NCBI GenBank assembly: GCA_020348905.1
Contig: CP070756.1
Span: 1,554,311 to 1,618,310 of the forward strand
Direction: 5' to 3'
From: Candidatus Zixiibacteriota bacterium
GTDB taxonomy: Bacteria > Zixibacteria > MSB-5A5 > GN15 > FEB-12
Length of the DNA stretch: 64,000 nt
Shown here one piece after another: positions 10,305-60,141 of the stretch (the stretch's first letter is position 1; the number at the start of each line of letters is the position of its first letter). The notes under the pieces are model-generated. The model was not told the DNA's origin, searched no databases, and worked only from the letters and a program-made list of their open reading frames with translations. The translations under genes and the position numbers were made by a program.

Positions 10305-10305
10305 C

Positions 10306-44678: not shown

Positions 44679-46256
44679 TTGTCAATAAGTAACGTACACA
44701 AAAAGTCCCTGCTCGGTTCAGCCGGTATTGTCTCCGGAGCAACTGCTTTTTCACGCGTATTGGGACTTATCCGCGAGCAGGTTATGGCCTATTTCTTTGG
44801 CGCCGGGATGGCCACCGACGCCTTTCTTACGGCATTCAGGATTCCGAATCTGCTGAGGGACATGTTTGCCGAGGGGGCGCTCTCGGCGGCATTCGTACCT
44901 GTGTTCAAGGAGAAGATGGTCAAACAGGGCGACGCGGATGCCTTCAAGCTGGCCGATGTTGTAATAACGGCCATACTTGTGGTGGTCGGTATAATTGTAC
45001 TTCTGGGTATAATCGCCGCCCCGGCAATAGTTTACATTTCAGCGAACGGATTTACCGAGATCCCGGAAAAATTCGCTTTGACCGTCAGTTTGACCCGGGT
45101 GATGATGATCTACCTGCTGCTGGTATCGCTCTCGGCGCTGGTGATGGGAATGCTCAACTCGTTCGGGCGCTTTGGCGTCCCGGCTCTTTCACCGGCGCTA
45201 TTCAATTTGGGCATTATCGTGACGGTGGTGATTCTGTATCGCTTCTTTGATCAGCCGGTGTATACGCTGGCTTTAGGGGTGCTCATCGGGGGCGCCGGCC
45301 AACTGTTTATTCAGCTGCCAGCCCTGCTCAAAATAGGCTTCAGATTCAAACCGATTTTCAATTTTCTCGATGAAGGCCTCAAGCGGGTTGTCAATCTTCT
45401 CATGCCGATGATTGTGGGCCTATCGGCCGGACGGATCAACATCCTGGTCAACACACTTCTCGCTTCATTTTTGATGCAGGGCTCGATCTCCTTTTTGAGT
45501 TACGCCTACCGCCTGATGCACTTTCCGCTGGGGGTTTTTGCCGTGGCCCTCGGAACGGTGGCGCTGCCGACGGTGTCGGAAATGGTCGCCCGGCGAGACA
45601 TGGACGGTCTTAAGCGTACTTTCGACCAGGCTATCAGTCTGAACCTCTTTGTTGTCATTCCGTCAGCAGTCTTTCTGGCCGTGATGGGACGGGAAGTGGT
45701 AGAGTTGATTTATACCTGGGGTGCTTTTTCCGAAGCTCACGCCGCAAACACCAGTCTGGCCCTGCTGCACTACTCCTACGGTCTGGTGGGCTTCGCTGCG
45801 GTAAGAGTGACGGTACCATTCTACTACGCCTTCAATGATTCGAAACTGCCTATGAAGGCCTCGGTCGTATCGGTCGTGGTGAACATGGCCCTTTACTACC
45901 CGCTTATCAAGGTGCTCGATTTTGCCGGTCTGGCGGCTGCGACCTCCATCGCCGGCTTGCTTAATTTTGCCATTCTGTTATATTACCTTCCTTCCAGGGG
46001 AGTCAGTTTTTCGCTGGGACGTTTCGGCTTGAATGTCTTCAGGATCAGTCTGGCGTCGCTTCTGGCCTTTTATGCCGCCAAGCTGTTTCCTGTCAGTTTA
46101 TATAGGGGAGATCTCAAGGTGCTTTCAAGATTAGAAGGATTACTTCTGCCGTTTGTTGTTGCCGCCATTGTTTATCTTGCGTTGTGCGCGGTGATGGGTG
46201 TCCGGGAGGTAAGGGATATCTCCCGAAAGCTGTTTAGAAGAACAACCGGCGGTTAA
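44679..46256 (+). CDS. murJ: Lipid II flippase MurJ (MviN)
   Basis: SRVLGLIREQVMAYFFGAGMATDAFLTAFRIPNLLRDMFAEGALSAAFVPVF and about 14 TM segments. TTG start. Confidence 0.9.
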   Translation: MSISNVHKKSLLGSAGIVSGATAFSRVLGLIREQVMAYFFGAGMATDAFLTAFRIPNLLRDMFAEGALSAAFVPVFKEKMVKQGDADAFKLADVVITAILVVVGIIVLLGIIAAPAIVYISANGFTEIPEKFALTVSLTRVMMIYLLLVSLSALVMGMLNSFGRFGVPALSPALFNLGIIVTVVILYRFFDQPVYTLALGVLIGGAGQLFIQLPALLKIGFRFKPIFNFLDEGLKRVVNLLMPMIVGLSAGRINILVNTLLASFLMQGSISFLSYAYRLMHFPLGVFAVALGTVALPTVSEMVARRDMDGLKRTFDQAISLNLFVVIPSAVFLAVMGREVVELIYTWGAFSEAHAANTSLALLHYSYGLVGFAAVRVTVPFYYAFNDSKLPMKASVVSVVVNMALYYPLIKVLDFAGLAAATSIAGLLNFAILLYYLPSRGVSFSLGRFGLNVFRISLASLLAFYAAKLFPVSLYRGDLKVLSRLEGLLLPFVVAAIVYLALCAVMGVREVRDISRKLFRRTTGG

Positions 46257-48532
46257 TGATTCGCAAGTTTCCTTCAGTATTCCTGCTGATTTTCATCGTA
46301 ACCGGAATTGTCATGGCTGATCAGAGCCGGTGGCCTTCCTGGTTGTTTCTATTGGTGTGTCTGGTCCCGTGTCTGGGGGGATTTCTTGCTCTTACGTCCC
46401 CGCGAAAGATGCTCGCCACCGTTTTGTTCTGTTTTTCGTTGCTGGGTTTCTCGGCCTTTCGCTTTGCGGCCGGCTTCTATGACGCGGGCCCTAATCACAT
46501 TTCCAGTTTCGACCTCCCAGGCGGCAGTTACCACATCTATGGTGAAGTTTCCGATTGGCCAGACCTTCGCTCTGATCGTACCGAATTCAAAATCGCTATA
46601 GACTCCATTGTAGATTCCCGCTGCCATCGCCTCATCGGGTTTATATTGCTCCGGGTGTCAGATACCACTACTGCTTTGCAGCGCGGCGATCGGGTCGAAT
46701 TCCATGGGAGAATATATCCGGTGAGACAACAAGTTTCTCCGGGCTCGTTCGATTACGGGCGACACCTCAATATGAGAGGCGTATTCGGTATCGTCTACGT
46801 ACCGACTCTTCTCGACGTCCGGGTAGACCGGCGAAACCGGTATGGCTTTTTATCGATGATCGATCGGTTGCGCGATGCCATCAGGGCCAGCCTTTACCAG
46901 AACCTCTCATCAAGCAGTGCCGCCCTGGCCTCGGGCTTTCTGATTGGCGAAACCAGGGATATTCCAATCGATGTGTATCAGCGGTTTCGTGACTCAGGCA
47001 CCCTTCATCTTCTGGCGGTATCGGGTTCCAATGTTGCCCTGATAGTGGTATTTTTTGTGTTTCTTCTCCGCCCTTTGAAGATTGACCCGACCAGGCGGGC
47101 TCTGGTGCTTCTGGCCGTGATCCTGATTTTCGCCTTTCTTTCATATGGCGAACCATCGGTCGTCAGAGCCTCGGTCATGGCCGGGCTGATTATCGTGGCC
47201 GGCCTGCTTCACCGGCGGCACAATCTGAACAACATAATCGCCACGGCTGCCGCCATCATTCTGCTGGTCGATCCCGCCCAGCTTTTTGATGTCGGTTTTC
47301 AGTTGTCCTTCTGTATCGCCTGGGGACTAATATTCATCGTTCCCCGTGTGACAGAGTTCTTCAAACCGGTTCAAAGTCGCTGGTGGTACCGGTGGCTGCT
47401 TTTTCCGCTTCTGATATCGGTGATCGCTCAGATCTGTTCGATGGGTTTGATCGCTTATTACTTCGACCGCGTCCCGCTTATTTCTCCTCTGGCTAACCTG
47501 GTGGTGGTTCCAATCGTGTCGGCAGCGGTGATCGGGACCCTGATCCTCCTGGTAGCTAATCTCATTCTGCCGGTCTTGGCTTTGTTTTTCGGAGCATGGC
47601 TGAACCTTCTTCTGGAGTGTGTGCTGAAGCTGGTGGAAACTTTTGGTAGCGACACGATGCCGGCGCTAAGCGTAGTGAACATGCCAATGTGGGTGAACCT
47701 GTTAATTTATGCTTACATCTTTCTGGCCGCCTGGTCACTCGGCAAGAAGTATGTCCGACGTCTGGTACTGATTTCGCTTCTGATGCTGGCCAATCTGATT
47801 CTGCTGGTTCATGTTTTCGACGATGGGGCGGCTTATGGTGAGGCCGAGGTAACCCTCTTTAGTATCCCCGGTGGTGCGGCGGCGGTAGTGAAGCGGTTGG
47901 GCGGAAATGATGCCGATCTGATCATAACCGGCATCAGAGGGCGTAATTATCCGGTCGATGAAAGGATAATCGGACCATGCCTGGACGAACTCGGGGTGGT
48001 CCGTCTCGGAACCGTGTTCGTCTTATCTGCTGAATTCGATGCCATAGACGATGTTTTACGTCTGACCCGGACTTACCCCGGGAGCCGCCTGTATGTGGAA
48101 CGGAGCGATGAACCGAGTTTCAAAGACGTCATCGCGTCTGATACCGCCGGTGACAGTGGCTCGTCAATTTTGACTTTTGGAGACACTGTCGCCGAATATG
48201 ATCGCAAGGGAGCTTACTACTGTCCGACCGGATGGGGTTTGCTTTTATCTGTGAACGGTTCGAAGGTGTTCTTTTGTGATTATGTTTTGCCGGCACACTT
48301 GAATGCTGACACGAAACTTGAGGGTGCCGTGCTGGTTGTGGGTCAGACCTGGCGTTCGACCGGCGAAGACCTCGCTGGCATCCGCCGCCGGGGTTTCAGT
48401 CAGATCGTCTGTTCAAAAATAGCACAGCCGCGCTACCACGAGGAATCTATGTTCGGGCATCAGCCTCCAAGAGCGCTTCCGGTGAATGTCTACGACCTGA
48501 GCCGGCGTGGCAGGCTAACGCTGAATCTGTAA
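46256..48532 (+). CDS. comEC: ComEC/Rec2-family DNA internalisation channel protein
   Basis: N-terminal TM/OB region, competence domain (FRDSGTLHLLAVSGSNVALI...SFCIAWGLI). The C-terminal domain lacks the MBL HxHxDH motif. The ATG overlaps the murJ stop (TAATG). Confidence 0.8.
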   Translation: MIRKFPSVFLLIFIVTGIVMADQSRWPSWLFLLVCLVPCLGGFLALTSPRKMLATVLFCFSLLGFSAFRFAAGFYDAGPNHISSFDLPGGSYHIYGEVSDWPDLRSDRTEFKIAIDSIVDSRCHRLIGFILLRVSDTTTALQRGDRVEFHGRIYPVRQQVSPGSFDYGRHLNMRGVFGIVYVPTLLDVRVDRRNRYGFLSMIDRLRDAIRASLYQNLSSSSAALASGFLIGETRDIPIDVYQRFRDSGTLHLLAVSGSNVALIVVFFVFLLRPLKIDPTRRALVLLAVILIFAFLSYGEPSVVRASVMAGLIIVAGLLHRRHNLNNIIATAAAIILLVDPAQLFDVGFQLSFCIAWGLIFIVPRVTEFFKPVQSRWWYRWLLFPLLISVIAQICSMGLIAYYFDRVPLISPLANLVVVPIVSAAVIGTLILLVANLILPVLALFFGAWLNLLLECVLKLVETFGSDTMPALSVVNMPMWVNLLIYAYIFLAAWSLGKKYVRRLVLISLLMLANLILLVHVFDDGAAYGEAEVTLFSIPGGAAAVVKRLGGNDADLIITGIRGRNYPVDERIIGPCLDELGVVRLGTVFVLSAEFDAIDDVLRLTRTYPGSRLYVERSDEPSFKDVIASDTAGDSGSSILTFGDTVAEYDRKGAYYCPTGWGLLLSVNGSKVFFCDYVLPAHLNADTKLEGAVLVVGQTWRSTGEDLAGIRRRGFSQIVCSKIAQPRYHEESMFGHQPPRALPVNVYDLSRRGRLTLNL

Positions 48533-48677: not shown

Positions 48678-49880
48678 ATGAGTTTAGCCGGTAACTTAAA
48701 AACAGTCTCGTTTCCGGACATCCTGCAGCTGCTGGCTACGGGAAAGAAGACTGGCATATTGGAAGTAAAGACTTCAACGCGCCAGAAGGAAGTTGCCTTC
48801 AAAGACGGTAACATCATCTATGCTTCTTCGGTCAATACCACCGAAGACCTGCTCGGCAATATGCTACTTCGGCGCGGAAAGATCACCAAGTCTGATCTTG
48901 ATCGAGCTATATCACTGCACAAGCAGACCGGGCGACAGCTTGGCACCACCCTGATAGACATGAATCTGTTCCAGAAGGAAGATATTGCAGAGTGTCTTCG
49001 GCTCCAGATAGAGGAAATTGTCTACAACCTGTTCTCCTGGCAGGAGGGAGATTTCGTATTTCATGAAGGCTCTTCGCCCAGCAACGTACCGTTCTTGATC
49101 GAACTGAACACCATGAATGTCATCATGGAGGGGACGCGGAGAATCGACGAATGGATGGAGATTCAGAAAGTCCTTCCGCCCGATGATGTGGTTCTGGCGC
49201 TGGCCAAGTCACCCAAGGTTGCCAAAGAGGATATTTCGATTTCGCTTGAAGAGTTTCGGATCATGGCCCTGATCAACGGTGAAAGGACCCTGCCCGATCT
49301 GATCAACATTTCGCCCATGGGTGAGTTCGTCACCTGCCGGGCGATCTACCGGCTCATTGTCGGCAACCTCATCGAGGTTGTGGGCCGCAGAGAAGACAGT
49401 CCCGAGGAAAAAGAGGATGAAGAAGAAGTCATTCTGGGTGTCCTGTTTCACCTGTACAACAACTGCTTTTTCAAAATCAGAAGTCTGGTAGAATCAGTCC
49501 TGGGAGAGAGTAACAGCCGCTTCGTGGATTTCACCTCGCAGTATCGTAGCGGCGTTTTTACCTTTTTCCCCGGCGTCGACCCGTCTTCGGAGTTGTGTCC
49601 ATCGTTCGACAAGTTCGTAGCCGCCGTCCGCGCCTTTCCGATTGAGACACGCTACCACAAACTGATGTCGGGCCTGGAAAACATGCTGGCCGAACAGCTT
49701 GAATATGTCTTTCAGCTTTTGGGAGTGGGTATTTACCGTGAGGCTGCGGTGCAGGTGAAAAAGGAGATTTCCGAACCACTGGCCGTACGAAGGGAAATGG
49801 TTAAGAGATATGGAATCGACGACAGTTTTTATAAAACGATGAAGAGAGCTGAAAAAGTCGTCAAAATGGTAAGAGGGTAA
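48678..49880 (+). CDS. PATAN/DUF4388-domain protein with a helical insertion
   Basis: N-terminal LAGNLKTVSFPDILQLLATGKKTGILEV...VAFKDGNIIYASS is the DUF4388 signature. An inserted helical repeat pair resembles GspE-N/MshEN helices. The C-terminal ~150 aa is unassigned. Confidence 0.7.
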   Translation: MSLAGNLKTVSFPDILQLLATGKKTGILEVKTSTRQKEVAFKDGNIIYASSVNTTEDLLGNMLLRRGKITKSDLDRAISLHKQTGRQLGTTLIDMNLFQKEDIAECLRLQIEEIVYNLFSWQEGDFVFHEGSSPSNVPFLIELNTMNVIMEGTRRIDEWMEIQKVLPPDDVVLALAKSPKVAKEDISISLEEFRIMALINGERTLPDLINISPMGEFVTCRAIYRLIVGNLIEVVGRREDSPEEKEDEEEVILGVLFHLYNNCFFKIRSLVESVLGESNSRFVDFTSQYRSGVFTFFPGVDPSSELCPSFDKFVAAVRAFPIETRYHKLMSGLENMLAEQLEYVFQLLGVGIYREAAVQVKKEISEPLAVRREMVKRYGIDDSFYKTMKRAEKVVKMVRG

Positions 49881-49882
49881 AG

Positions 49883-50245
49883 ATGAGAAAGATATTAGGA
49901 TTGAGTGTCCTGAGCATTCTGGCAACAAGCGGCGACGCGACGGCGGCGAATTTAGCCGTCATTACCAGCCCGCCAACAATGCTCAAGTTTGTGGTCTTCG
50001 GCGTTGCCATTGGATGCCTGGTCGGCTCGGTGAAGCTTCTGTCAGTCCTGAAGGGAGGACTGCTGTTTAAGAGTTGGCAGAATATCATGTTCGGATTCGG
50101 AGTCCTGGCCGTGTCGCAACTGGCCGCCCTGCTCAGTGATTTCGAAGTGGTTAACCTGCCCGACTTCGTTTCACCGGCTCTCTGGGTAGTTGTATGCGGG
50201 CTCTTCCTTTACGGAATCTTTGAGGCCAAGAGAACCCTGGACTGA
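49883..50245 (+). CDS. Small membrane protein (signal/anchor plus 3 TM segments)
   Basis: 120-aa hydrophobic ORF starting 2 nt after the previous stop. No known family. Confidence 0.55.
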   Translation: MRKILGLSVLSILATSGDATAANLAVITSPPTMLKFVVFGVAIGCLVGSVKLLSVLKGGLLFKSWQNIMFGFGVLAVSQLAALLSDFEVVNLPDFVSPALWVVVCGLFLYGIFEAKRTLD

Positions 50246-50255
50246 AAATTATTAT

Positions 50256-50284
50256 ATTGACATAACTTGCTGTATTATATATAA
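50256..50284 (+). promoter_or_regulatory. Perfect consensus sigma-70 promoter in an AT-rich spacer
   Basis: TTGACA (50256-50261), 17 nt, TATAAT (50279-50284). An 8-nt direct repeat TAAGTTGA lies at 50296 and 50316, downstream of the -10 box. Confidence 0.55.
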
Positions 50285-50348
50285 TTATGGGCTAAGTAAG
50301 TTGATGTATTTGTCAATAAGTTGAAAACCAATAACTTCGAAGCTGCTG

Positions 50349-51209
50349 ATGATAAATGCTGTCGAAATAGACGAGCGAATTAGTAAGTGTCAGAAGATTT
50401 TGGACGTCGATCCAAACTCTCAAATCTTTGCCGCTCTGGCGGAAGCCTATCGTAAGAAGGGGGAGTTAGAGAAGGCTTTTCGCGTTTGCCAGAACGGTCT
50501 CAGAATTCATCCGTCTTACGGCTCGGCGCATGTTGTCATGGCCAAGATCAATCTTGACCGGCGCCTTTACGATTGGGCTGAAATCGAGGCCAGAAAGGCA
50601 TCCGAAATAGACGGTCTGACGCGGACTATCGAGCTGTTGCTGGCTGAAATATACATCTATAAGGGCGAATTCACGCAGGCCGTGAAACTGCTCAAGAAGC
50701 TCAACGAGGCTGATCCCAATAACGATCAGATCAAGAAACTGTTGGACATTGCTCAAAAGATACCCGAGGAGCAGACCCTGGTCATTGAGCAAGCGGCGCC
50801 GGAGCCGGGCGACGGGACAGGGCAAACCGACGAAGTCCCGGTGGCGGATGAACAAGCTACCCCGCAACGTTTGGGAGTCAGGGACGTGGTGGAGCAGGCG
50901 TTGAAGATAGGCGGGGTTCAGGGTGCGCTTCTGGTTAACTTTGAGGGTTTGATTGTAGACTCGGAATGGCGATTGTCTATGGATTCTTCGCTATGCAGCG
51001 CCACGCTGGGGGATGTTAGTAACCTGCTAAGTCAGGACCTGGTAAAAAGTTCTTTCGGAGACTTCTACACGGTACTAATCGAAGCTGCCAAGAACACTTT
51101 TTATCTGGTCCGCGTTCATAATGGTTTATTCCTGTTCGTTACCGATAGCAAGGCTAATCTGGGGACGATCAGAATGAAGGTTGAGAATTTGCTGATCTCG
51201 TATCAGTAA
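50349..51209 (+). CDS. TPR-repeat protein fused to a C-terminal Roadblock/LC7 (MglB-like) domain
   Basis: TPR helices at aa 20-135, an acidic/Pro linker, then VVEQALKIGGVQGALLVNFEGLIVDS...FYLVRVHNGLFLFVTDSKANLGTIRMKV, which follows the Roadblock pattern. Confidence 0.7.
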   Translation: MINAVEIDERISKCQKILDVDPNSQIFAALAEAYRKKGELEKAFRVCQNGLRIHPSYGSAHVVMAKINLDRRLYDWAEIEARKASEIDGLTRTIELLLAEIYIYKGEFTQAVKLLKKLNEADPNNDQIKKLLDIAQKIPEEQTLVIEQAAPEPGDGTGQTDEVPVADEQATPQRLGVRDVVEQALKIGGVQGALLVNFEGLIVDSEWRLSMDSSLCSATLGDVSNLLSQDLVKSSFGDFYTVLIEAAKNTFYLVRVHNGLFLFVTDSKANLGTIRMKVENLLISYQ

Positions 51210-51226
51210 ACAATAAAGGACAACTT

Positions 51227-52201
51227 ATGGAAATAAGCGGACGCATATCAAGGCAGATTCTGCTCCTATCGTTGCTGGTACTGCTGGTTTCGATGCTGAT
51301 ATTTCCTAAGAGATATGGGACGAATCTTGCCGACGCTCCTTTGATTTATGTCGTGGTTGAACTGGTTTTCTATGGATTCGTGATTTACCTGTTTAATAGA
51401 AGCCTCACCCCGCTGCAGCTGGTATCTTCGGCCGGTCTGTGCCTGATTTACCGATTTGCTCTTGGAGCAGCTCTTGGTATCGGCATCGTTGTCGTCTATC
51501 AGTGGCAGTTCAAAACAGCCCTGATAGCAGGCATGGGAAGTTATCTTCCGGGAATGCTGCTTCAAATAGTGGCGGCGCCTTTTATTCTGAAACCGGCTAT
51601 TGACGTTCTTTACGGTGGGCAGCCCAAGGCCAAACCGAAAGCTCCACCGAAACCCCAGAGTGCCTCCACCGATTCCTTAACCTCTATTGCCGCCTCGAAG
51701 AAGAAAGGTTACAGCCAGACGGGCCCGGCTTCGGTGGCCGAAGTGTTCGGGCCAGATGCGGCTTCGAGCCAGACCGGTTCCGTGGCCTCGACCGCCACCG
51801 AAGACAACGGATTCGACCGGGCCACCAGGTACATAGGCGAGGATGGATCGGTCCTGGTGGCAGCTGTAGTTGATGTTGATGGTTTACTGTTGGGCAATTT
51901 CAGCCGGCGGGGCGTCGATGCCGAGGACTGGGCTCCCTTCGCGCTGACTTTGGTGGAACAGAATCGGCAAGTGGTGACCCGGCTCGATCTGGATAAACCT
52001 GAAAAGATCGACATTGTACTCAACGACAAGAAAGTAATCGTTGCCTGCGAAGAGGCTTACTCGCTGATGGTCGTCGCCGACCGGGCAACCGATGATGTTC
52101 TTAATATTCGAATTAATCAGGGGCTTGAAATAATCAGAAAATATGTAGCTGAACGATATAGCGAAGAGCTTATCGGGAAGGTGGAGAAGACTTATGTATG
52201 A
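51227..52201 (+). CDS. Membrane-anchored (about 4 TM) protein with a C-terminal Roadblock/LC7 domain
   Basis: Hydrophobic N-terminal 125 aa, a Lys/Pro/Ser linker, then YIGEDGSVLVAAVVDVDGLLLGNF...KKVIVACEEAYSLMVVADRATDDVLNIRI. Confidence 0.7.
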   Translation: MEISGRISRQILLLSLLVLLVSMLIFPKRYGTNLADAPLIYVVVELVFYGFVIYLFNRSLTPLQLVSSAGLCLIYRFALGAALGIGIVVVYQWQFKTALIAGMGSYLPGMLLQIVAAPFILKPAIDVLYGGQPKAKPKAPPKPQSASTDSLTSIAASKKKGYSQTGPASVAEVFGPDAASSQTGSVASTATEDNGFDRATRYIGEDGSVLVAAVVDVDGLLLGNFSRRGVDAEDWAPFALTLVEQNRQVVTRLDLDKPEKIDIVLNDKKVIVACEEAYSLMVVADRATDDVLNIRINQGLEIIRKYVAERYSEELIGKVEKTYV

Positions 52202-52535
52202 CGTGTTGGACGGCTTGAACAAAACCACCGGTGTAACCGGGTCTATGGTGGTGGGAAATGACGGTATCGTCATTGCCGCCAATCTCGATGAATCGTTCGA
52301 GGGCGAGGCGATAGGTGCTCTGGCAGCGTCAATTACGACCAATATTCAGAAGTCACTTGACCGGCTGGAGTCGACGCCGCTGAAGCAGGTAACGATTGAA
52401 GCAGAGGAAGGAAAGCTATTTTTCACCGATGCCGGTCTGGGTATTCTGGTGGTGACCACCGAAAAGCAGGTGAATATCGGTTTGATTCGGCTGGAAATCA
52501 AGAATGCTATCAGTAAACTCAAAATAGCAGGGTAA
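52194..52535 (+). CDS. Stand-alone Roadblock/LC7 domain protein (MglC-like size)
   Basis: 113 aa: LNKTTGVTGSMVVGNDGIVIAANL...EEGKLFFTDAGLGILVVTTEKQVNIGLIRLEI. The start overlaps the upstream stop (ATGTATGA). Confidence 0.8.
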   Translation: MYDVLDGLNKTTGVTGSMVVGNDGIVIAANLDESFEGEAIGALAASITTNIQKSLDRLESTPLKQVTIEAEEGKLFFTDAGLGILVVTTEKQVNIGLIRLEIKNAISKLKIAG

Positions 52536-52564: not shown

Positions 52565-53656
52565 ATGGTTTCAATAAACTATTCATCGCGGGAAGTCTGT
52601 TGTAAGATTGTCTATTACGGTCCTGGTCTGTCCGGCAAGACGACCAATCTGCTTTACGTCCACTCTAAGGTACCCTCGGATACGCGCGGTAAGATGATTT
52701 CTCTGGCAACGGAAGCCGACCGAACCCTGTACTTCGACTTTCTGCCGATAAACATTGGCACGATTAACGGCTTTGCCGCCAAATTCCAGCTATACACCGT
52801 ACCCGGTCAGGTTTACTATAATGCGACCAGGAAACTGGTGCTGCGCGGCGTGGACGGAGTCGTATTCGTGGCCGACAGTCAGCCCGATAAGATGGAAGAA
52901 AACATCGAATCATTGGTCAACCTCGAGGAAAACCTCAGGGAATACGGTTATGATATCAATGATCTTCCCATGGTTATCCAGTATAACAAACGGGATCTTC
53001 CGGGGGTGATGGCGGTAGATGAACTCAACACCCGTCTCAATACACGGAATTTGCCTCATTTCGAGGCGTCGGCTACGATCGGTAACGGAGTATTCGACAC
53101 GCTCAAGTTGATAATCAAGCTGGTGCTGGAGAAGGCCAAGCGAAGTGCCACCGATCGAGCTCGACCGGATGTGAGTTATTCGGAGCCGGCCGCCGAGGCG
53201 CCTGTGCCGACTCCGGTTCAGCAGGAGCCGGATGAGGTTCCGTCAGCACCGTCAGAGCCGGCCGCACCGGAGCGGGTGCCGGTCGAACCATCACCGGTGA
53301 CAGCCGAGGCAGAGCCCGGCGGGCAGGCGGCGCGATCGACCGGGCCTATAAGTGTGGCACAGGCCGAACCCGTGGCCGAGGCTCCGGCGGAGCAGCCCGA
53401 ACCGTCCAGGTATCGTCCGTATCCGGGCGGTGAAAATCCGGAGGAATTGGACAAGAAGATTTCATCTGCAAGCTTTACACCTACCCGGCGGGAAGAAGCG
53501 GATGACAATGCGCCGGCCGCGGAAGTAGCCGGACTTAAGACCGGCCAGGACAGCGAAAGCGCCGACCTGTCCCGACCGGCAATGGCTCCTTCACTCAAGC
53601 GCCGCGGCGACAAGAAGAAGCGCGGTTTCTTTAAACGTTTGTTCGGTATTAAATAG
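52565..53656 (+). CDS. mglA: MglA-type Ras-like small GTPase with a ~170-aa disordered C-terminal extension ending in an amphipathic basic tail
   Basis: The first ~192 aa are near-collinear with Myxococcus MglA as I recall it (INYSSRE..CKIVYYGPGLSGKTTNL, DRTLYFDFLP, YTVPGQVYY, QYNKRDL). The tail is P/A/E-rich and ends KKKRGFFKRLFGIK. Confidence 0.9.
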   Translation: MVSINYSSREVCCKIVYYGPGLSGKTTNLLYVHSKVPSDTRGKMISLATEADRTLYFDFLPINIGTINGFAAKFQLYTVPGQVYYNATRKLVLRGVDGVVFVADSQPDKMEENIESLVNLEENLREYGYDINDLPMVIQYNKRDLPGVMAVDELNTRLNTRNLPHFEASATIGNGVFDTLKLIIKLVLEKAKRSATDRARPDVSYSEPAAEAPVPTPVQQEPDEVPSAPSEPAAPERVPVEPSPVTAEAEPGGQAARSTGPISVAQAEPVAEAPAEQPEPSRYRPYPGGENPEELDKKISSASFTPTRREEADDNAPAAEVAGLKTGQDSESADLSRPAMAPSLKRRGDKKKRGFFKRLFGIK

Positions 53657-53673: not shown

Positions 53674-54165
53674 ATGGCTGATAATAGTCTGATAATCTAT
53701 GAAGAAGAGATTAACCAAATCGACTCGTTGATTTCTAAGATGCTCAAAGGGGCCGAGGCAAAGTGCGCTCTCCTTGTCGACAAGGATGGTCACCTTATCA
53801 CCCGTCAGGGATTCACTCACTCCCTTGACACAACCGCTCTGGCCGCCCTGCTGGCAGGGTCATTCGCATCGACCAAGGAAATCGCACGGCTGGTCGGTGA
53901 GCCGGAGTTCTCGGTGCTGTTCCACCAGGGCAAGAAAGACCATATCCATATGTCGCTGGTCGGAGATCGGTCCATCCTCGTGGTCATATTCGATGACCGT
54001 ACGACGATCGGGATGGTGCGTTTGTATGCCAAGGAGACAGCGATCGAGTTGGGCAAGATCTTCGAGAAGATCAAAGAGCAGTCCGCCGATAAACCCAAGG
54101 CTGGCATTACCAGTGATTTCGCCAGTAAGGCTGAAGACAAGCTCGACGATATCTTCCAGGATTAG
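53674..54165 (+). CDS. mglB: MglB-type Roadblock/LC7 GTPase-activating protein
   Basis: YEEEINQIDSLI...ALLVDKDGHLITRQG...DTTALAALLAG...FHQGKKDHIHMSLVG...VVIFDDRTTIGMVRLYAKE plus an acidic C-tail, collinear with Myxococcus MglB as I recall it. AGGAGG SD. Confidence 0.85.
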   Translation: MADNSLIIYEEEINQIDSLISKMLKGAEAKCALLVDKDGHLITRQGFTHSLDTTALAALLAGSFASTKEIARLVGEPEFSVLFHQGKKDHIHMSLVGDRSILVVIFDDRTTIGMVRLYAKETAIELGKIFEKIKEQSADKPKAGITSDFASKAEDKLDDIFQD

Positions 54166-54227: not shown

Positions 54228-55928
54228 ATGTCTTCTGAACTTAGTGCGATGCTGGTCAAGGCCGGCAAAATCACGCCGGAGCAAGCTGAAAAAGCTCTGG
54301 CCATGGTCAAAGAGAAGGGCGAGAATTTTGAGCAGGCCTTGATAAAGGTCGGTGCCGCCGACTCAGAAGATGACATTGCCAAGTTTATCGGCAAGCACCT
54401 GAAAATCGGAGCCCTGCGTCTCTCCGACGTCGAACTCAACCCGGACATTGTAAAGCTGATTCCGCTCGATATCGCACGCAAATTCAAAGTCGTCGCGGTA
54501 TCCAAACTCAACAAGACTCTGCTGGTAGCCATCAGTGATCCCAACAATATTTATGTCCTCGATGCCATAAAGTTCATCACGGGATGTACCGTGCAGCCGG
54601 TTATATCTCCCGAGAAGGCAATCGAAAAGGCTATTGAGACCTACTATACCAATGCCGACGGTCTCTCGGAGTTGGTCCGCGGTCTGGAAGAGGATTCGGA
54701 TCTGGAAGTAGTCTCCGACGAGGAAACGCCCAGCGAATCGGACCTCCTCTCGCAGATTCAGGACAAGCCGCTGGTCAAGCTCGTCGATTCTATTATTGCC
54801 GACGCCATTCGTATAGGGGCGTCCGATATTCATTTCGAAATGTATGAAAAACGAATCCGGGTGCGATATCGTGTTGACGGTGACCTGCGAGAGATGGCAC
54901 CGCTGCCGTTTAAGTATCGGGCCGCCATTGTATCGCGTATCAAGATTATGGCCGAACTGGATATTTCCGAGCGTCGTCTGCCGCAGGACGGCCGCATCAA
55001 GATTAAGATTGCCGGGCGAACGGTCGACCTTCGTGTCTCGGTCCTGCCGACCATATTCGGCGAGAAGGTGGTTATGCGTATTCTGGACCCGATGGCTCTG
55101 ATGGTGGACATGACCAAGCTGGGGTTCAGGGAAGATGACCTGAAAAAGTTCAACGAAAAAATCCATCTGCCCTACGGCATTATTCTGGTCACCGGGCCGA
55201 CCGGTTCGGGTAAAACGACCACCCTTTATTCGGCTCTGAAGCAGATCAATACCGTTGATGTCAATATCATGACTGCCGAGGACCCGGTCGAGTTCAACTT
55301 CGACGGCATCAATCAGGTGGCCGTCAAGTCCGACATCGGCATGACCTTCGCCGCCTCACTTCGTTCCTTCCTTCGTCAGGACCCTGACATCATAATGGTT
55401 GGTGAGATTCGTGACGGCGAAACGGCCGAGATCGCCATCCGAGCCGCCCTGACGGGTCACCTGGTGTTTTCGACCCTGCACACCAACGACGCCCCCTCAT
55501 CGATTAACCGGCTTATCGACATGGGTGTACCTCACTACCTGGTTGCTTCGGCTACGAAGATGATTATGGCTCAGCGAATGATGCGCAAGATTTGCCAGAG
55601 CTGCAAAGAAGAGGTCAACCTCACCCAGGAACAGGTTGAAAGCCTTGGTGTTACCAAAGACATACTGCGCAATATCAGGGCTTTTCGGGGAGTGGGCTGC
55701 AGTGACTGCAATGACACCGGCATGTCGGGTCGAACCGGTATCTATGAGGTTATGCCTATAACATCCGAAATGGAGGCACACATTCTTTCCAGGTCGACCG
55801 ATACAGAGATCCGTGAGACGGCCCTGAAACAGGGCATGTACAGCCTTCGGATGGCCGCCGTCGATAAAATGAAGCAGGGCATAGTTTCTATCGATGAGGT
55901 CTTCTCGGTGACCTCTGCCGGCTCCTGA
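54228..55928 (+). CDS. pilB: Type IV pilus assembly ATPase PilB (GspE family)
   Basis: N-terminal T2SSE_N helices, Walker A GPTGSGKTTTLYS, Asp/His boxes and the tetracysteine CQSC...CSDC. Confidence 0.9.
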   Translation: MSSELSAMLVKAGKITPEQAEKALAMVKEKGENFEQALIKVGAADSEDDIAKFIGKHLKIGALRLSDVELNPDIVKLIPLDIARKFKVVAVSKLNKTLLVAISDPNNIYVLDAIKFITGCTVQPVISPEKAIEKAIETYYTNADGLSELVRGLEEDSDLEVVSDEETPSESDLLSQIQDKPLVKLVDSIIADAIRIGASDIHFEMYEKRIRVRYRVDGDLREMAPLPFKYRAAIVSRIKIMAELDISERRLPQDGRIKIKIAGRTVDLRVSVLPTIFGEKVVMRILDPMALMVDMTKLGFREDDLKKFNEKIHLPYGIILVTGPTGSGKTTTLYSALKQINTVDVNIMTAEDPVEFNFDGINQVAVKSDIGMTFAASLRSFLRQDPDIIMVGEIRDGETAEIAIRAALTGHLVFSTLHTNDAPSSINRLIDMGVPHYLVASATKMIMAQRMMRKICQSCKEEVNLTQEQVESLGVTKDILRNIRAFRGVGCSDCNDTGMSGRTGIYEVMPITSEMEAHILSRSTDTEIRETALKQGMYSLRMAAVDKMKQGIVSIDEVFSVTSAGS

Positions 55929-56077: not shown

Positions 56078-57151
56078 ATGGTATCCCTGCGTGAACTGTT
56101 GGAGCAGATGGTTAAGATGGGTGCCTCCGACTTGCATCTTACGGTGGGTTCTCCACCGGTTGTACGGGTGGATGGCAAGTTGCAGAGGCTGGATCACGAC
56201 ATCCTGACCAGTGAACAGACCAAGAAAATTTCATACTCCATGCTCAACGAGAAGCAGAAGCAGAAATTTGAGCAGAACTCCGAACTTGACTTCTCGTTCG
56301 GAATCGAGCAAATGAGCCGTTTCAGATGCAACATGTTCATGCAGCGCGGAAATGTTGCGGTTGCTCTTCGCCAGATTCCTTACAAGATAATGTCGTTCGA
56401 AGAGCTTGGTCTTCCCAAAGTGGTGGCCGACTTCTCCAAGCTGCCGCGCGGGCTGGTGCTCGTTACCGGTCCGACCGGTTCAGGTAAGTCGACGACACTG
56501 GCGTCGATCATCGATAAAATCAATCGTGAGCGCCCGGTCCATATAATCACCGTCGAAGATCCGATCGAGTACCTGCATCGTCATCAGCAGGCGTTGATTA
56601 ACCAGCGAGAGGTATACTCCGACACGACTTCGTTTGCGGCGGCTCTGAAGTACGCCCTGCGTGAGGATCCGGATGTGGTTCTGATAGGCGAGATGCGTGA
56701 TCTGGAGACAATCGAGGCGGCCCTGTCGATATCGGAAACGGGACACCTGGCTTTTGCCACCCTCCACACCAACTCGGCCTCGGAGTCGATCAACCGTATT
56801 ATTGACGCTTTTCCCACCAATCAGCAGGAGCAGATACGGATTTCGCTGTCGTTCACTCTGCAGGCTATCCTGTCACAGACCCTGATTCCCAAGATAGGCG
56901 GCGGACGGGTGCTGTCGATGGAGATCCTGGTTGTCACGCCCGCCATCAGGGCCCTGATTCGCGACGACAAGGTCCATCAGATCTACTCCATGATTCAATC
57001 GGGACAGAAGTTCGGTATGAAGACGATGAATCAATCGCTGTCTGAATTGTATCAGACGGGAAAGATTACAATAAACGATGCTATGAGCTACAGTCACAAT
57101 CCTCAGGAGTTGAGCGAATCGTTGTCGAAACAGAAAACTGCGGCTTTTTAG
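56078..57151 (+). CDS. pilT: Type IV pilus retraction ATPase PilT
   Basis: GASDLHL, GPTGSGKSTTLAS, the AALREDPDV-like region ALREDPDVVLIGEMRD, and GHLAFATLHTNSA. Confidence 0.95.
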   Translation: MVSLRELLEQMVKMGASDLHLTVGSPPVVRVDGKLQRLDHDILTSEQTKKISYSMLNEKQKQKFEQNSELDFSFGIEQMSRFRCNMFMQRGNVAVALRQIPYKIMSFEELGLPKVVADFSKLPRGLVLVTGPTGSGKSTTLASIIDKINRERPVHIITVEDPIEYLHRHQQALINQREVYSDTTSFAAALKYALREDPDVVLIGEMRDLETIEAALSISETGHLAFATLHTNSASESINRIIDAFPTNQQEQIRISLSFTLQAILSQTLIPKIGGGRVLSMEILVVTPAIRALIRDDKVHQIYSMIQSGQKFGMKTMNQSLSELYQTGKITINDAMSYSHNPQELSESLSKQKTAAF

Positions 57152-57180: not shown

Positions 57181-58380
57181 GTGCCAGTTTTTGAATATAA
57201 AGGTAAGACTCTCGCCGGCGCCGCTGTTAAAGGCGAGCTTAAGGCTAACAGTCGAGCCGACCTGGAGCGTGTCCTCCGGCAAAACCGGATTATGGTGACG
57301 TCAATCACCAAGAAGGCGCCGGAGATACAAATCAAAATCGGCACCGGTGTCAAGCGAATCGAGGTTTCTCGGTTCACCCGGCAGTTCGCCACCATGATCG
57401 GCGCCGGGCTACCGATGGTGCAGTGTCTGGACATTCTCGCCACGCAGATGGAAAATAAGGAGTTGGCCAAGATCGTTCAGCAGGTGAAGGATTCCGTGCA
57501 GGGTGGCGCTACCCTGTCGGAGGCCCTGGCGCGCCATCCCAAAATATTCGACCAGCTGTATACCAACATGGTTGAGGCCGGTGAGGTAGGCGGTGCTCTC
57601 GACGCTATTCTAAACCGACTGGCTCTCTATCGGGAAAAAGCCGACCGGCTGGTCCGCAAGGTTAAAGGCGCCATGGTCTATCCGTCGGTGGTTTGTGTCG
57701 TGGCGATAGCCGTTACAATCGGTATGCTGGCTTTTATCGTGCCGGTGTTCGCCAAGATGTTTGGAGGCCTGGGAGCGGAATTGCCGAAACCGACTCAGGT
57801 CGTACTGGGAATATCAAACTTCCTGAAAAGCAATATCGGGACAATAATATTCGGCACCCTGGGCGGCCTGGGAATTTTCATATGGTGGAAACGGACGCCA
57901 TCGGGTGCGCTGCTCTGGGACAGATTCCTGCTTTCCTCGCCGATACTGGGAAACCTCATAAGAAAATCGTCGATTGCCCGTTTCACGCGTACCCTGGGCA
58001 CGCTGCTGGCATCGGGTGTCTCCATCCTGGAAGCGCTGGAGATAACCGCCAAGACCGCCGGCAACCTGATCGTGGCTAACGCGATTAACAAGTCGGTGCT
58101 TTCGATCGCCGAGGGTGATACCATTACCAGTCCTTTGAAGGAGACCGGTGTATTCCCTCCGATGGTAACCCAGATGATAGCGGTCGGTGAAAAGACCGGC
58201 GGCCTTGACGAGATGCTCAACAAGATCGCCGATTTCTACGATGAGGAGGTCGACGAGGCGGTATCCGCCCTGACATCGGTTATCGAGCCGATCATCATCG
58301 TGGTTATGGGTGTCGTTATCGGTGGCATCCTGATCGCCATGTACCTGCCGATGTTCGACATCATTGGCAAGATTGGATGA
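57181..58380 (+). CDS. pilC: Type IV pilus platform protein PilC (GspF family)
   Basis: Duplicated GspF domains (FTRQFATMIGAGLPMVQCL / FTRTLGTLLASGVSILEAL) and 3 TM segments. GTG start. Confidence 0.9.
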   Translation: MPVFEYKGKTLAGAAVKGELKANSRADLERVLRQNRIMVTSITKKAPEIQIKIGTGVKRIEVSRFTRQFATMIGAGLPMVQCLDILATQMENKELAKIVQQVKDSVQGGATLSEALARHPKIFDQLYTNMVEAGEVGGALDAILNRLALYREKADRLVRKVKGAMVYPSVVCVVAIAVTIGMLAFIVPVFAKMFGGLGAELPKPTQVVLGISNFLKSNIGTIIFGTLGGLGIFIWWKRTPSGALLWDRFLLSSPILGNLIRKSSIARFTRTLGTLLASGVSILEALEITAKTAGNLIVANAINKSVLSIAEGDTITSPLKETGVFPPMVTQMIAVGEKTGGLDEMLNKIADFYDEEVDEAVSALTSVIEPIIIVVMGVVIGGILIAMYLPMFDIIGKIG

Positions 58381-58410: not shown

Positions 58411-58437
58411 ACGGCGCCGGGGGGCGCCGTTACTTTT
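58411..58437 (+). terminator. Hairpin plus T-run between pilC and the kinase gene
   Basis: ACGGCGCC-gggg-GGCGCCGT followed by TACTTTT, directly abutting the ATG at 58438. Confidence 0.45.
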
Positions 58438-60141
58438 ATGTATAGCAGAGAGGTTCTCAACAAGATCGGATGGTTCCTGCCGCTGAGACTGGCACAATAT
58501 ATTGTGCTGTTCGCAGTGGTGGTGTTCTGGATGGGCTACCCGCGGTTCATGCAGCCGCAGTTCGTCTTGTACTCCATCTGTACGCTCGGTTTTGCGGTGC
58601 TGATGGCGGCCGGTCGAAAGCACCGGTTGAAGAACGTCACAGCCACCATAATCGGTCTGCAGTTTCTGTTCGAGATTGTTCTGGAATCAAGCATCATTTA
58701 CTCGACCGGAAATGTCAATTCGCCGTTCTCCGCGCTGTTTATTCTCACTATCGTTTCCGCCGCCCTTACCTATCGCCTTCTGGGCACGCTGGTGACAGCA
58801 TCGCTGGTATCGGTCGCGTATGCCTTCATCATCTGGTTGGGACTGTCAAGGGGTCAGGATTACGAAATATCGATGCGAACCCTCAAAACCATCTTCTCCT
58901 CGGGTGACAGCGCTTTCTACTCGATATTTCTTCATATTCTCATCTTCTACCTGGTGGCGTTTATATCGGGTTACCTGGCCGAACGCCTCAAGGAGCGCGA
59001 TCGCCAGTTGGCTGACACTTCGCTGGCGCTGAAGAAGGCGAAACTTGAAACCGACGACATCCTCAGACATCTTAACTCCGGGCTTCTGACCGTCGACGCC
59101 AAGGGAATCGTCATATTTTTTAATCGGGCCGCCGAAAGGATACTGGGTTACCGCGAAGAAGACGTCAAAGGTATGCACTGTCGGGAAGCGTTCTCGCAAC
59201 GAATGCCCGAGCTGGCCAGCCGCCTGATGGACGGGATAGAACATCGCCTGGAGCACCCACGGGTCGAAATTGAAATCGTCGGGGCCGAAGGCGCCGTTGT
59301 CCCGCTGGGACTGTCGACATCGATTCTGACCGAGGAGGGCCTGGGGATGAGGGGGATTATTGCCATCTTTTCGGATCTCACCGAAGCAAAGCGCCTTGAA
59401 GCGAAAATGAGGACGGCCGACAGGCTGGCCGTGGTTGGCGAACTGTCCGCCTCGATTGCACACGAAATACGCAATCCGCTCGCGGCTATTTCCGGTTCGG
59501 TGGAGGTGCTCAAGAATGACCTGAAAGTCTCCGATGAAAATGAGCGGCTGATGAACCTGATCGTGAAAGAGTCTGACCGGCTAACGAAAATTCTTACCGA
59601 GTTTCTTTTATATGCCAGGATCGACCGTACCGCTTACAACAAGGTTGAACTCTGTCACCTGGTAGGCGAAGTGATTGAAATGCTTTACCATAATCGGTCG
59701 CTTGAATCAAGAGTCGATTTCAGGGTAGAGTCGGATGAGTCCATAATCTACGTGGTAGGCGACGAAGACCTGATCAAGCAACTGCTGCTGAATCTGGCTG
59801 TCAACGCCTGCGAATCATTCGAAGACATGGACGGCCAGGTCACTTTTCGTCTGACTGTCAATCATCCGGAAAACCGGGTGGAGTTGCGTGTTCAGGACAA
59901 CGGGCCCGGTATCCCGGCCGACAACATCAAGAAGATATACCAGCCGTTCTTTTCGACCAAGAAGGAGGGGACGGGCCTGGGGCTTTCCATTGTTCACCGC
60001 ATCTGCTCAGCTCTCAAGCTGAGGATGGAAGTATTGTCTGAAGAAGGTGTTGGCACCACCTTTGTGGTCGAATTTGACACTTTCGTTCAGGAAACGCCGT
60101 CGCCGGTCGAATCAATCCCCCCATCGTGCGGCAGCCACTGA
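58438..60141 (+). CDS. Membrane sensor histidine kinase, PilS-like architecture (multi-TM, PAS, HisKA, HATPase)
   Basis: About 6 N-terminal TM segments, PAS (LLTVDAKGIVIFFNRAAERILGY), H-box SASIAHEIRNPL, and N/G boxes (DNGPGIP, GTGLGLSIV). Confidence 0.8.
   Translation: MYSREVLNKIGWFLPLRLAQYIVLFAVVVFWMGYPRFMQPQFVLYSICTLGFAVLMAAGRKHRLKNVTATIIGLQFLFEIVLESSIIYSTGNVNSPFSALFILTIVSAALTYRLLGTLVTASLVSVAYAFIIWLGLSRGQDYEISMRTLKTIFSSGDSAFYSIFLHILIFYLVAFISGYLAERLKERDRQLADTSLALKKAKLETDDILRHLNSGLLTVDAKGIVIFFNRAAERILGYREEDVKGMHCREAFSQRMPELASRLMDGIEHRLEHPRVEIEIVGAEGAVVPLGLSTSILTEEGLGMRGIIAIFSDLTEAKRLEAKMRTADRLAVVGELSASIAHEIRNPLAAISGSVEVLKNDLKVSDENERLMNLIVKESDRLTKILTEFLLYARIDRTAYNKVELCHLVGEVIEMLYHNRSLESRVDFRVESDESIIYVVGDEDLIKQLLLNLAVNACESFEDMDGQVTFRLTVNHPENRVELRVQDNGPGIPADNIKKIYQPFFSTKKEGTGLGLSIVHRICSALKLRMEVLSEEGVGTTFVVEFDTFVQETPSPVESIPPSCGSH

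Follow-up and report, generated by a model that had tools for sequence, protein, structure and literature searches.

Three accessory Roadblock proteins in a conserved MglA, MglB and pilus motor gene cluster of Zixibacteria

The stretch analysed here, hereafter the window, comprises 64,000 nucleotides of contig CP070756.1 of a Candidatus Zixiibacteriota bacterium (GenBank assembly GCA_020348905.1, positions 1,554,311 to 1,618,310 of the forward strand); coordinates below are counted from its first letter. It contains a run of genes in which three proteins that end in a Roadblock/LC7 domain precede the small GTPase MglA and its Roadblock partner MglB, and in which the pilus motor genes pilB, pilT and pilC come directly after mglB. 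In the records examined, the organisms that carry these genes are known only as metagenome-assembled genomes (MAGs). A preliminary description of the sequence had read the three proteins, together with MglB, as a possible membrane-bound, Ragulator-like platform for MglA. Here we explore the fold, conservation and genomic setting of these proteins and weigh what they may do together. The features of the locus are as follows.

48678-49880, plus strand: PATAN (DUF4388) protein, 400 aa (Pfam PF14332, E 1.3e-35), with tandem MshEN-like cyclic di-GMP (c-di-GMP) motifs
49883-50245, plus strand: 120-aa membrane protein (TM120), recognised by hydropathy and K+R distribution, with no Pfam or NCBIfam match
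50257-50285, plus strand: sigma-70-type promoter TTGACA-17 nt-TATAAT, 12/12 consensus matches
50349-51209, plus strand: fusion of tetratricopeptide repeats (TPRs) and a Roadblock domain (TPR-Robl), 286 aa (Pfam, AlphaFold2, Foldseek, hhalign)
51227-52201, plus strand: fusion of transmembrane (TM) helices and a Roadblock domain (TM-Robl), 324 aa (AlphaFold2, Foldseek, topology, homologues)
52194-52535, plus strand: stand-alone Roadblock protein (Robl113), 113 aa (Pfam Robl_LC7, E 9.7e-14)
52565-53656, plus strand: MglA GTPase, 363 aa (phmmer E 1.3e-80 to Myxococcus xanthus MglA)
53674-54165, plus strand: MglB, 163 aa (profile E 2.5e-45 to M. xanthus MglB 6izw_B)
54228-55928, plus strand: pilB (Pfam T2SSE, E 6e-138, plus MshEN, E 2.7e-17)
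56078-57151, plus strand: pilT (Pfam T2SSE, E 8e-49)
57181-58380, plus strand: pilC (Pfam T2SSF, E 9e-68)
58411-58430, plus strand: strong G+C-rich hairpin with a T run after it, terminator-like, just 3' of pilC (8 pairs, 7 of them G-C)

The three accessory open reading frames (ORFs) lie exactly where the preliminary description had placed them, the hydrophobic hairpin strings it quoted (GALLVNFEGLIV, VAAVVDVDGLLLG and SMVVGNDGIVIA) are found in the translations, and its account of the layouts is correct. These are four TPRs, a linker and a Roadblock domain in TPR-Robl; four TM helices, a K/P/S linker and a Roadblock domain in TM-Robl; a bare 113-aa Roadblock in the third. MglB is the fourth Roadblock protein of the locus. 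Against the Pfam model Robl_LC7 (PF03259, gathering threshold 23 bits) Robl113 scores 51.3 bits and lies above the threshold, while TPR-Robl (19.8 bits, E 6.5e-4) and TM-Robl (18.8 bits, E 1.4e-3) fall below it; PF03259 matches are precomputed for several orthologues of both fusions. Since the single-sequence Pfam call is marginal for the two fusions, three further independent tests were made. Single-chain AlphaFold2 (AF2) models, built on family alignments, give residues 195-311 of TM-Robl the order alpha-beta-beta-alpha-beta-beta-beta-alpha (block pLDDT about 85-93) and residues 177-283 of TPR-Robl the same fold at lower confidence (block pLDDT mostly 71-88, one block 58). Foldseek comparison with the PDB returns M. 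xanthus MglB 6hjm as best match of TM-Robl (E 2.8e-7, TMt 0.73-0.82), and LAMTOR2 5y3a_G (E 7.3e-7, TMt 0.82) and the Asgard Roadblock 7yh1 (TMt 0.84) for TPR-Robl. Roadblock proteins top both lists, that of TPR-Robl being also headed by consensus-TPR designs, and the Roadblock matches of both fusions, Streptomyces 3kye included, range from about 1e-7 to 1e-5 in E and from 0.7 to 0.84 in TMt. Finally, hhalign of the family profiles aligns the TPR-fused domain with Robl113 at E 4e-13 and the TM-fused domain with Robl113 at E 5e-5. All three ORFs thus end in a Roadblock/LC7 domain, by AF2, Foldseek and profile comparison and, for the 113-aa protein, by Pfam; one outcome that the preliminary description had named as fatal to its proposal, a non-Roadblock fold in structure prediction, did not occur. 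All four Roadblock domains share a fold which in MglB, MglC, Ragulator and Asgard proteins forms dimers and provides the dock for small GTPases. In the PATAN protein, the TM domain and TM120, hhalign detected no hidden domain of this or a related kind (all pairs at E 0.01 or weaker).

In TPR-Robl eight TPR-type helices (residues 4-148, about 50358-50792) are joined by a disordered linker (147-171) to the Roadblock domain (177-283, 50877-51197); its TPR half is nearly invariant. TM-Robl begins with four TM helices (residues 5-120, 51239-51586), continues with a disordered linker rich in K, P, S and A (about 130-193) and ends in the Roadblock domain (195-311, 51809-52159). Topology prediction, which the preliminary description had asked for, gives four hydrophobic helices in the orientation N-in/C-in. 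The K+R counts across the family are 2.0 at the N terminus, 0.4 in the loop between helices 3 and 4, and 5.0 after TM4, and because this positive-inside pattern fits N-in/C-in, the Roadblock domain is predicted to be cytoplasmic. Within the TM part P27, G31, R76, Y106, P108 and P118 are invariant and E45 is nearly so. These conserved polar and helix-breaking residues lie inside the membrane helices, which exceeds what a passive anchor would need. The start codon of Robl113 lies within the last codons of TM-Robl, in an 8-nt overlap ATGTATGA with GGTGGAG just upstream. A conserved E-K-x-Y-V at the C terminus of TM-Robl (52182-52201) was considered as a peptide ligand of the TPR domain and set aside, being mostly explained at the DNA level: its codons hold the GGTGGAG ribosome-binding site and the ATG of Robl113, so that its conservation may be a by-product of dual coding.

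Among the accessory domains, the TPR-fused domain and Robl113 are close paralogues and the TM-fused domain belongs to their group at a greater distance, as judged by hhalign. MglB stands apart: compared with its family profile the three domains reach E 6.5e-4, 0.13 and 1.1e-3, in alignments that are short or of low probability, and none shows the full-length similarity, C-terminal helix included, by which an MglB is recognised. A C-terminal helix as such is kept in all three, and the accessory Roadblocks are of the full Roadblock type, not of the truncated LC7/LAMTOR4-5 type as distinguished in PMC10933270. Against the PDB the Robl113 profile has 16 matches at E up to 1, of which the Asgard Roadblock 7yh1 is the nearest (E 2.9e-12), followed by CvnB5 3leq (E 2.4e-4) and MglB (0.04). 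The profile of the TPR-fused domain finds an Asgard stand-alone Roadblock at E 2.5e-5 and LAMTOR2 marginally, at E 0.012. An MglC-named chain is absent from the PDB matches of the three accessory profiles (E up to 1, for one profile 10), in a PDB copy whose content of MglC was unchecked; a structure of M. xanthus MglC has been reported (PMC7949163). The homologue search with the Robl113 profile was saturated by Zixibacteria orthologues, and no distant relatives were seen in it.

Both fusions are widespread in the phylum. TM-Robl has 121 database homologues, most of them full-length and 34-88% identical, and of 1.84 billion cluster representatives only 194, from clustering at 50% identity, match it at E 0.001 or better; the family is compact and restricted to a lineage. 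The annotation JSU74_07345 belongs to a protein that is 100% identical to the TM-Robl ORF. TPR-Robl has 717 homologues, the best 120 of which cover at least 90% of the query at 56% identity or more, and some of its homologues are automatically annotated as Roadblock/LC7 or COG2018. A locus scan, with one genome per species of GTDB, yielded 56 loci, nearly all labelled Zixibacteria or GN15 or else evidently mislabelled MAGs. Both fusions are present wherever the contig reaches in these 56 species-level loci, so that the other outcome held up in the preliminary description as damaging, fusions missing from every related genome, is not what is found; a misassembly or lineage-specific accident is ruled out by full-length fusions in 121 and 717 homologues and by the 56 loci. 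In every locus long enough the order is constant: MurJ, ComEC, PATAN, TM120, TPR-Robl, TM-Robl, Robl113, MglA, MglB, PilB, PilT, PilC, PilS. Gene order is likewise fixed in locus L001 and, also where other genes lie upstream, in the divergent loci L059-L061. Robl113 ranks with the best conserved proteins of the module (71-96% identity across loci), MglB is 75-97% identical, and TM120 is conserved in position in 43 loci at 30-72% identity.

Spacing within the cluster is tight. The median gap between the PATAN gene and TM120 is 3 nt, which makes the two a bicistronic unit; that between TPR-Robl and TM-Robl is 11 nt; TM-Robl and Robl113 overlap, with a median of -17 nt and a range of -8 to -20 nt, in 52/52 loci. 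The medians are 26 nt for Robl113-MglA and 17 nt for MglA-MglB, mglB in the window likewise starting 17 nt after mglA, then 73 nt for MglB-PilB, 148 nt for PilB-PilT and 27 nt for PilT-PilC. The promoter at 50257-50285 lies in the 103-nt gap before TPR-Robl, 63 nt upstream of its start codon. In 41 of 47 loci a counterpart with at least 10/12 matches and the same 17-nt spacer is found 61-78 nt upstream of the orthologous start, and this conservation of position and spacer is unusually strong for a non-coding element across a phylum. The hairpin at 58411-58430 is a possible end of the transcription unit; it is a consensus match, and such sites are not more frequent in the region than in shuffled sequence. 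The genes that flank this unit in the conserved order are the following.

44679-46256: MurJ (local gene map, Pfam/NCBIfam)
46256-48532: ComEC, a DNA-uptake channel, immediately upstream of PATAN in nearly all loci
58438-60141: PilS-like kinase (local gene map)

Because these unrelated flanking genes are equally syntenic, synteny alone overstates functional coupling. More weight falls on the promoter, the tight spacing, the overlap and the core order of locus L061, where TPR-Robl, Robl, Robl, MglA, MglB and PilB are kept while the upstream genes differ. In this locus the PATAN gene is replaced by a gene for a 447-aa receiver and PATAN protein (L061 2515-3858), about 5 kb upstream; genes for HAMP, beta-helix/TonB_C and DUF8082 proteins lie between it and the unchanged Roadblock-MglA-MglB-PilB core. 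The proximity of ComEC to the pilus motor genes may mean a competence role for these pili, or frozen synteny only.

A deep lineage, which falls under the NCBI label Zixibacteria through a cluster-mate at 90% identity, has the operon with one difference. Weaker matches of the representative scan included 132-150-aa proteins that align to the Roadblock part of TM-Robl only. The operon of one of them, P0490, encodes ComEC, PATAN, a 121-aa membrane protein, TPR-Robl, a soluble 150-aa Roadblock protein, a 112-aa Roadblock protein, a 407-aa MglA, MglB, PilB, PilT and PilC. Compared with the window, PilB and MglB of this lineage are 68% identical and TPR-Robl 34%. The soluble orthologue of TM-Robl is encoded at the following positions.

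L059 8128-8580: soluble 150-aa orthologue of TM-Robl
L060 7607-8059: soluble 150-aa orthologue of TM-Robl

Since the deep lineage has the operon with a soluble orthologue, the TM domain was gained or lost within the phylum and the anchor is lineage-specific, the module doing without it in one lineage at least. The C terminus of MglA in this lineage is KKRKFTFFGLFKE, and the 407-aa protein ends in KKRKFTFFGLFKESKE.

The G domain of MglA (residues 1-194, 52565-53146) is about 70% identical to M. xanthus MglA. The phmmer alignment covers residues 3-194 with R53, T78 and Q82 in register, and these three columns are invariant across 47 loci. The protein is a canonical group-1 MglA, with the intrinsic arginine R53, T78 in place of the Ras aspartate, the catalytic Q82 and coupling to MglB. 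Its length is 311-414 aa across loci, so that it departs, owing to a tail, from the single-domain form of about 195 aa that defines group 1. This tail (residues 195-363, 53147-53653) comprises about 170 aa, is disordered and is rich in P, E, A and S; its length varies (120-220 aa; 121-209 aa across loci), and it is otherwise unconserved save for three islands. The first is RP[YF]PG (residues 284-288, 53414-53428), present in 47/47 tails; the second is P.MAPSL followed by basic residues (residues 338-344, 53576-53596); the third is a C-terminal polybasic amphipathic segment, KKRGFFKRLFGIK (residues 351-363, 53615-53653), nearly invariant across loci. A stricter form of the first island, YRPYPG, seemed to be missing from 11 tails and to offer a presence/absence contrast, which was dropped once the looser search found RP[YF]PG throughout; as all 47 tails carry it, no such contrast with the TPR domain is possible. 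The first two islands look like short linear motifs for a partner, for which the neighbouring TPR domain is a candidate.

The terminal segment KKRGFFKRLFGIK shares 7/10 residues with the membrane-targeting sequence of Escherichia coli MinD, KGFLKRLFGG, which has been used experimentally as a transplantable membrane tag (PMC5471200). The MglA 10-mer that aligns with it is similar to MinD in hydrophobicity and hydrophobic moment, while the moment of the terminal 13-mer does not exceed that of shuffles, so that the likeness is confined to the aligned 10-mer. It is therefore plausible that MglA is tethered to the membrane through its flexible tail. No Roadblock profile matches the tail, which is of low complexity, and the window contains one MglA gene. 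In the literature searched neither the MglA of Zixibacteria nor one bearing a membrane-targeting helix, such as that of the MinD type, was described. A survey of prokaryotic MglA proteins from 2014 (PMC4316618) predates the Zixibacteria genomes, and it would have missed this class because it left out sequences longer than 240 aa.

The ORF at 53674-54165 is a canonical MglB, a Roadblock GTPase-activating protein (GAP). The alignment of its family profile with M. xanthus MglB 6izw_B covers residues 5-162 and includes the C-terminal helix; Thermus MglB is matched at E 1e-19, Pfam Robl_LC7 at 51.5 bits (E 8.7e-14), and the NCBIfam model of Thermus-type MglB at 99 bits, below its equivalog cut-off of 200.

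Upstream of the promoter, the PATAN gene is kept before the Roadblock genes in the loci that reach it. Residues 59-110 of its product (48852-49007) match the MshE-related c-di-GMP motif NF053729 of NCBIfam at 47.8 bits, against a cut-off of 38, and its helical insert holds two tandem repeats of the LGxxLLxxG...Q type. The PATAN family profile also matches PilB weakly (E 6.5e-4), PilB having its own MshEN domain. The conserved C-terminal region of the PATAN protein (160-400) has no Pfam or NCBIfam match. TM120 comprises a signal-peptide-like or first TM segment and three further TM helices.

Co-divergence was explored by partial Mantel tests in which the background divergence of PilB, PilT and PilC was removed; 36 pairs were tried. 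The MglA G domain varies with the TPR domain (r 0.36, p 0.0005) and with the Roadblock domain of TM-Robl (r 0.34, p 0.0015), the latter varies with PATAN (r 0.42, p 0.0005), and the TM domain of TM-Robl (51227-51616) varies with TM120 (r 0.42, p 0.004). Residual co-divergence of the accessory domains with MglB is weak, r being at most 0.19 in a test that is limited because MglB is almost invariant. These correlations are hints only.

Elsewhere in the window profile searches found no further Roadblock, PATAN or MglA paralogues, no factor of the RomR/RomX type was seen in it, and an Rfam scan of it found no RNA family. The rest of the scanned window encodes housekeeping functions: DsbD, ECF sigma/anti-sigma, HtrA-like, TamA/TamB, IscS and MnmA proteins, as well as radical SAM, AsmA, topoisomerase I, HslU-like and OTCase proteins. 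Two of its regions concern outer-membrane biogenesis and are unrelated to the module, namely a TamB-like gene (1205 aa) paired with an Omp85/TamA-like gene at 10237-15771, and a gene for an AsmA/YhdP-like protein of 943 aa at 22004-24835.

Our preferred reading, to which we give roughly even confidence, is that the locus may be the core of a Zixibacteria-specific switch for type IV pilus polarity or activation, built around a membrane-proximal multi-Roadblock hub. The three accessory proteins would pair through their Roadblock domains, by helix alpha-2 and strand beta-3 as is typical of the superfamily. The likeliest pair would be TM-Robl with the translationally coupled Robl113, a coupling that lends only indirect support, while TPR-Robl would pair with itself or with Robl113. 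Together they would assemble a hub at the inner membrane, on its cytoplasmic side, on which MglA, kept near the membrane by its C-terminal helix, the MglB dimer, or both would dock. Docking would determine where MglA-GTP arises, persists or is hydrolysed. The TPR domain, nearly invariant as it is, could serve as an adaptor to a conserved partner, be it the RP[YF]PG motif of the MglA tail, PilB or the PATAN protein, and the PATAN/MshEN protein and TM120 might supply the hub with c-di-GMP or membrane signals. What would result is control of PilB/PilT engagement and hence of pilus extension, retraction and polarity.

Several points weigh against this reading. The formation of a hub is deduced from fold, gene order and precedent. 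The accessory domains show no close sequence similarity to MglB or MglC. Gene order is conserved well beyond the module, with MurJ and ComEC upstream and PilS downstream. The partial Mantel test is liberal, and 3/36 pairs are at or near the Bonferroni limit (0.0005, 0.0005 and 0.0015 against about 0.0014). A single helix of the MinD type binds membranes weakly by itself. Finally, the membrane anchor of the hub is dispensable or replaced, since the deep lineage has a soluble orthologue of TM-Robl. The earlier suggestion that the assembly is membrane-bound stands in part: the MinD-like helix of MglA and the predicted cytoplasmic Roadblock domain on a TM protein speak for it, and the missing anchor in the deep lineage speaks against it.

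An MglC-like role, in which the accessory Roadblocks are adaptors of MglB and not a platform for MglA, fits equally well. By binding the MglB dimer they would keep the GAP at the membrane or pole, in place of the RomR/MglC landmark. The MglC of M. xanthus, a homodimer of Roadblock type, lies between RomR on one side and two MglB dimers on the other (PMC10329633), and here the accessory genes share an operon with mglB. Of the KRK surface by which MglB binds MglC, R115 aligns with R116, which is invariant in these proteins, while K14 and K120 are Q and E in the MglB alignment. The missing MglC-named chain among the PDB matches and the weak co-divergence with MglB, the latter under the limit set by its near-invariance, also count against such adaptors. 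Taken as a full account of the locus we find this role unlikely.

A strictly Ragulator-like assembly would consist of two stacked Roadblock heterodimers, fixed to the membrane, which bind MglA and act as a scaffold or as a non-canonical guanine nucleotide exchange factor (GEF). In its favour the locus encodes four Roadblock proteins, one of them membrane-anchored, the TPR-fused domain has LAMTOR2 as its best structural match, the operon has no RomR/RomX-type factor, and divergence of the MglA G domain tracks two accessory domains and not MglB. Yet MglA itself lacks a Roadblock domain with which to stack on such a platform and is one GTPase instead of a heterodimer; the anchor is a TM domain fused in cis, not a wrapping subunit like LAMTOR1, and it is missing in the sister lineage; three accessory proteins cannot make two exclusive heterodimers without MglB or a homodimer; and the sequence match to LAMTOR2 is marginal. 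What survives of the Ragulator-like membrane platform for MglA is thus the Roadblock folds and the conserved unit with a canonical MglA and MglB, whereas the features that define Ragulator are absent. Such an assembly in the strict sense seems to us quite improbable.

The accessory Roadblocks might instead act singly or directly on the pilus ATPases, as NTPase regulators of PilB/PilT or as alternative GAPs at separate places, without any joint platform. The Roadblock superfamily has been put forward as regulating NTPases in general (Koonin and Aravind 2000, cited in PMC4316618), and pilB and pilT are directly downstream. Joint assembly is favoured over this by the translational coupling of two accessory genes and by close paralogy, and the literature searched gave no precedent for Roadblock regulation of PilB/PilT; we give such direct action little credence. 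That the genes have no common function and adjoin only because gene order is frozen in the phylum, as the equal synteny of unrelated flanks (MurJ, ComEC, PilS, PpiC) might suggest, is very improbable given the survival of the core order in L061 despite different upstream genes, the shared conserved promoter with gaps of 11-26 nt and one overlap, and the fact that Roadblock proteins are known partners of MglA.

Returning to the multi-Roadblock hub, a bolder form of it can be envisaged, which we consider speculative and unlikely to hold in full. Zixibacteria might have independently built a eukaryote-style membrane GTPase unit, in which MglA, tethered by its tail together with the terminal anchor, sits on a membrane-fixed heteromeric Roadblock stack acting as GEF or scaffold, and a TPR arm reads RP[YF]PG and hands active MglA to PilB/PilT. 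The disordered tail of MglA with its polybasic amphipathic anchor would then be comparable to the hypervariable region of Ras. If true, such a unit would be a self-contained, operon-encoded link from MglA to the pilus motor, a link that is still described as unknown in Myxococcus (PMC11580455). The positioning of MglA-GTP and its route to the pilus motor are only partly understood even there. With candidate parts behind one promoter, namely a GTPase, its GAP, three Roadblock subunits, a TPR adaptor, a membrane anchor and the motor ATPases, the locus offers a compact, phylum-wide parts list. With this list one can ask whether stacked Roadblock dimers, the idea behind Ragulator and MglC, are a general and ancient means of placing small GTPases at membranes, whether a disordered tail can serve as the membrane tether of a Ras-like GTPase in bacteria, and what the TPR and PATAN proteins contribute.

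The nearest known system is the polarity module of M. xanthus (MglA, MglB, MglC, RomR/RomX, RomY and SgmX), whose MglA and MglB are orthologous to those of Zixibacteria. There MglC, like the extra Roadblock proteins here, accompanies the GAP, and the pathway likewise includes a TPR protein and pilus motors: SgmX connects MglA with pili and takes PilB to the pole "by an unknown mechanism" (PMC11580455). M. xanthus has one accessory Roadblock and the Zixibacteria locus three, none of them like MglC in sequence; SgmX and MglC are separate proteins, whereas Zixibacteria has TPR-fused and integral-membrane Roadblocks. Also unlike M. xanthus, Zixibacteria MglA carries a disordered tail of 120-220 aa with a MinD-like helix, and the parts, which are scattered over the genome in M. 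xanthus, are found in one operon with pilB, pilT and pilC, with no RomR/RomX in the window.

Other systems share single traits with the module. In the four-gene conservons of actinobacteria (CvnA-D/Mfp) a membrane-associated GTPase of the MglA family is likewise found with an MglB-type Roadblock (PMC4316618), and CvnB5 3leq is a weak match of Robl113. Their GTPase belongs to group 2, in contrast to the group-1 MglA with intrinsic arginine and the pilus-motor context found here, and Pfam and NCBIfam scans of the operon revealed no CvnA-type kinase and no CvnC/DUF742; since CvnA and CvnC are lacking, the module is not a conservon. The stand-alone Roadblocks of Asgard archaea (7yh1, 9jue, 7f8m) are the closest solved sequences to Robl113 and to the TPR-fused domain. 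They have the full architecture with C-terminal helix and form homodimers (PMC10933270), but come from another domain of life, show no fusions and are not known beside MglA/MglB or pilus genes. PATAN genes are known neighbours of mglA/mglB (PMC4316618), and PATAN response regulators are reported in a preprint to interact with the pilus motor (10.1101/2021.06.11.447907); the PATAN protein of the window differs from such regulators in having no receiver domain and in carrying MshEN-type c-di-GMP motifs. The resemblance to MinD concerns the membrane-targeting sequence (PMC5471200) and the C terminus of MglA.

Ragulator-Rag (LAMTOR1-5, RagA/B-RagC/D) resembles the module in that several subunits of Roadblock fold, predicted here to be at the membrane, occur beside a small GTPase, and in that LAMTOR2 is structurally closest to the TPR-fused domain (TMt 0.82), with marginal sequence similarity (E 0.012). 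It differs in that Rag GTPases carry their own Roadblock domain at the C terminus and pair as a heterodimer, whereas MglA is single and has no such domain; in that its anchor is the lipidated, wrapping LAMTOR1, where the Zixibacteria operon has a four-TM domain fused in cis and no LAMTOR1-like gene; and in its output, which is TOR signalling and not pilus motors. The idea of a Ragulator likeness was reasonable, but the analogy has already been published for MglC/MglB: MglC dimers stack on MglB dimers, MglA-GTP breaks that contact, and the authors remark that this is similar in concept to Ragulator-Rag with its Roadblock stack of three layers (PMC10329633). The Zixibacteria module is not a Ragulator homologue, and its likeness to Ragulator is one of analogy, not of membership.

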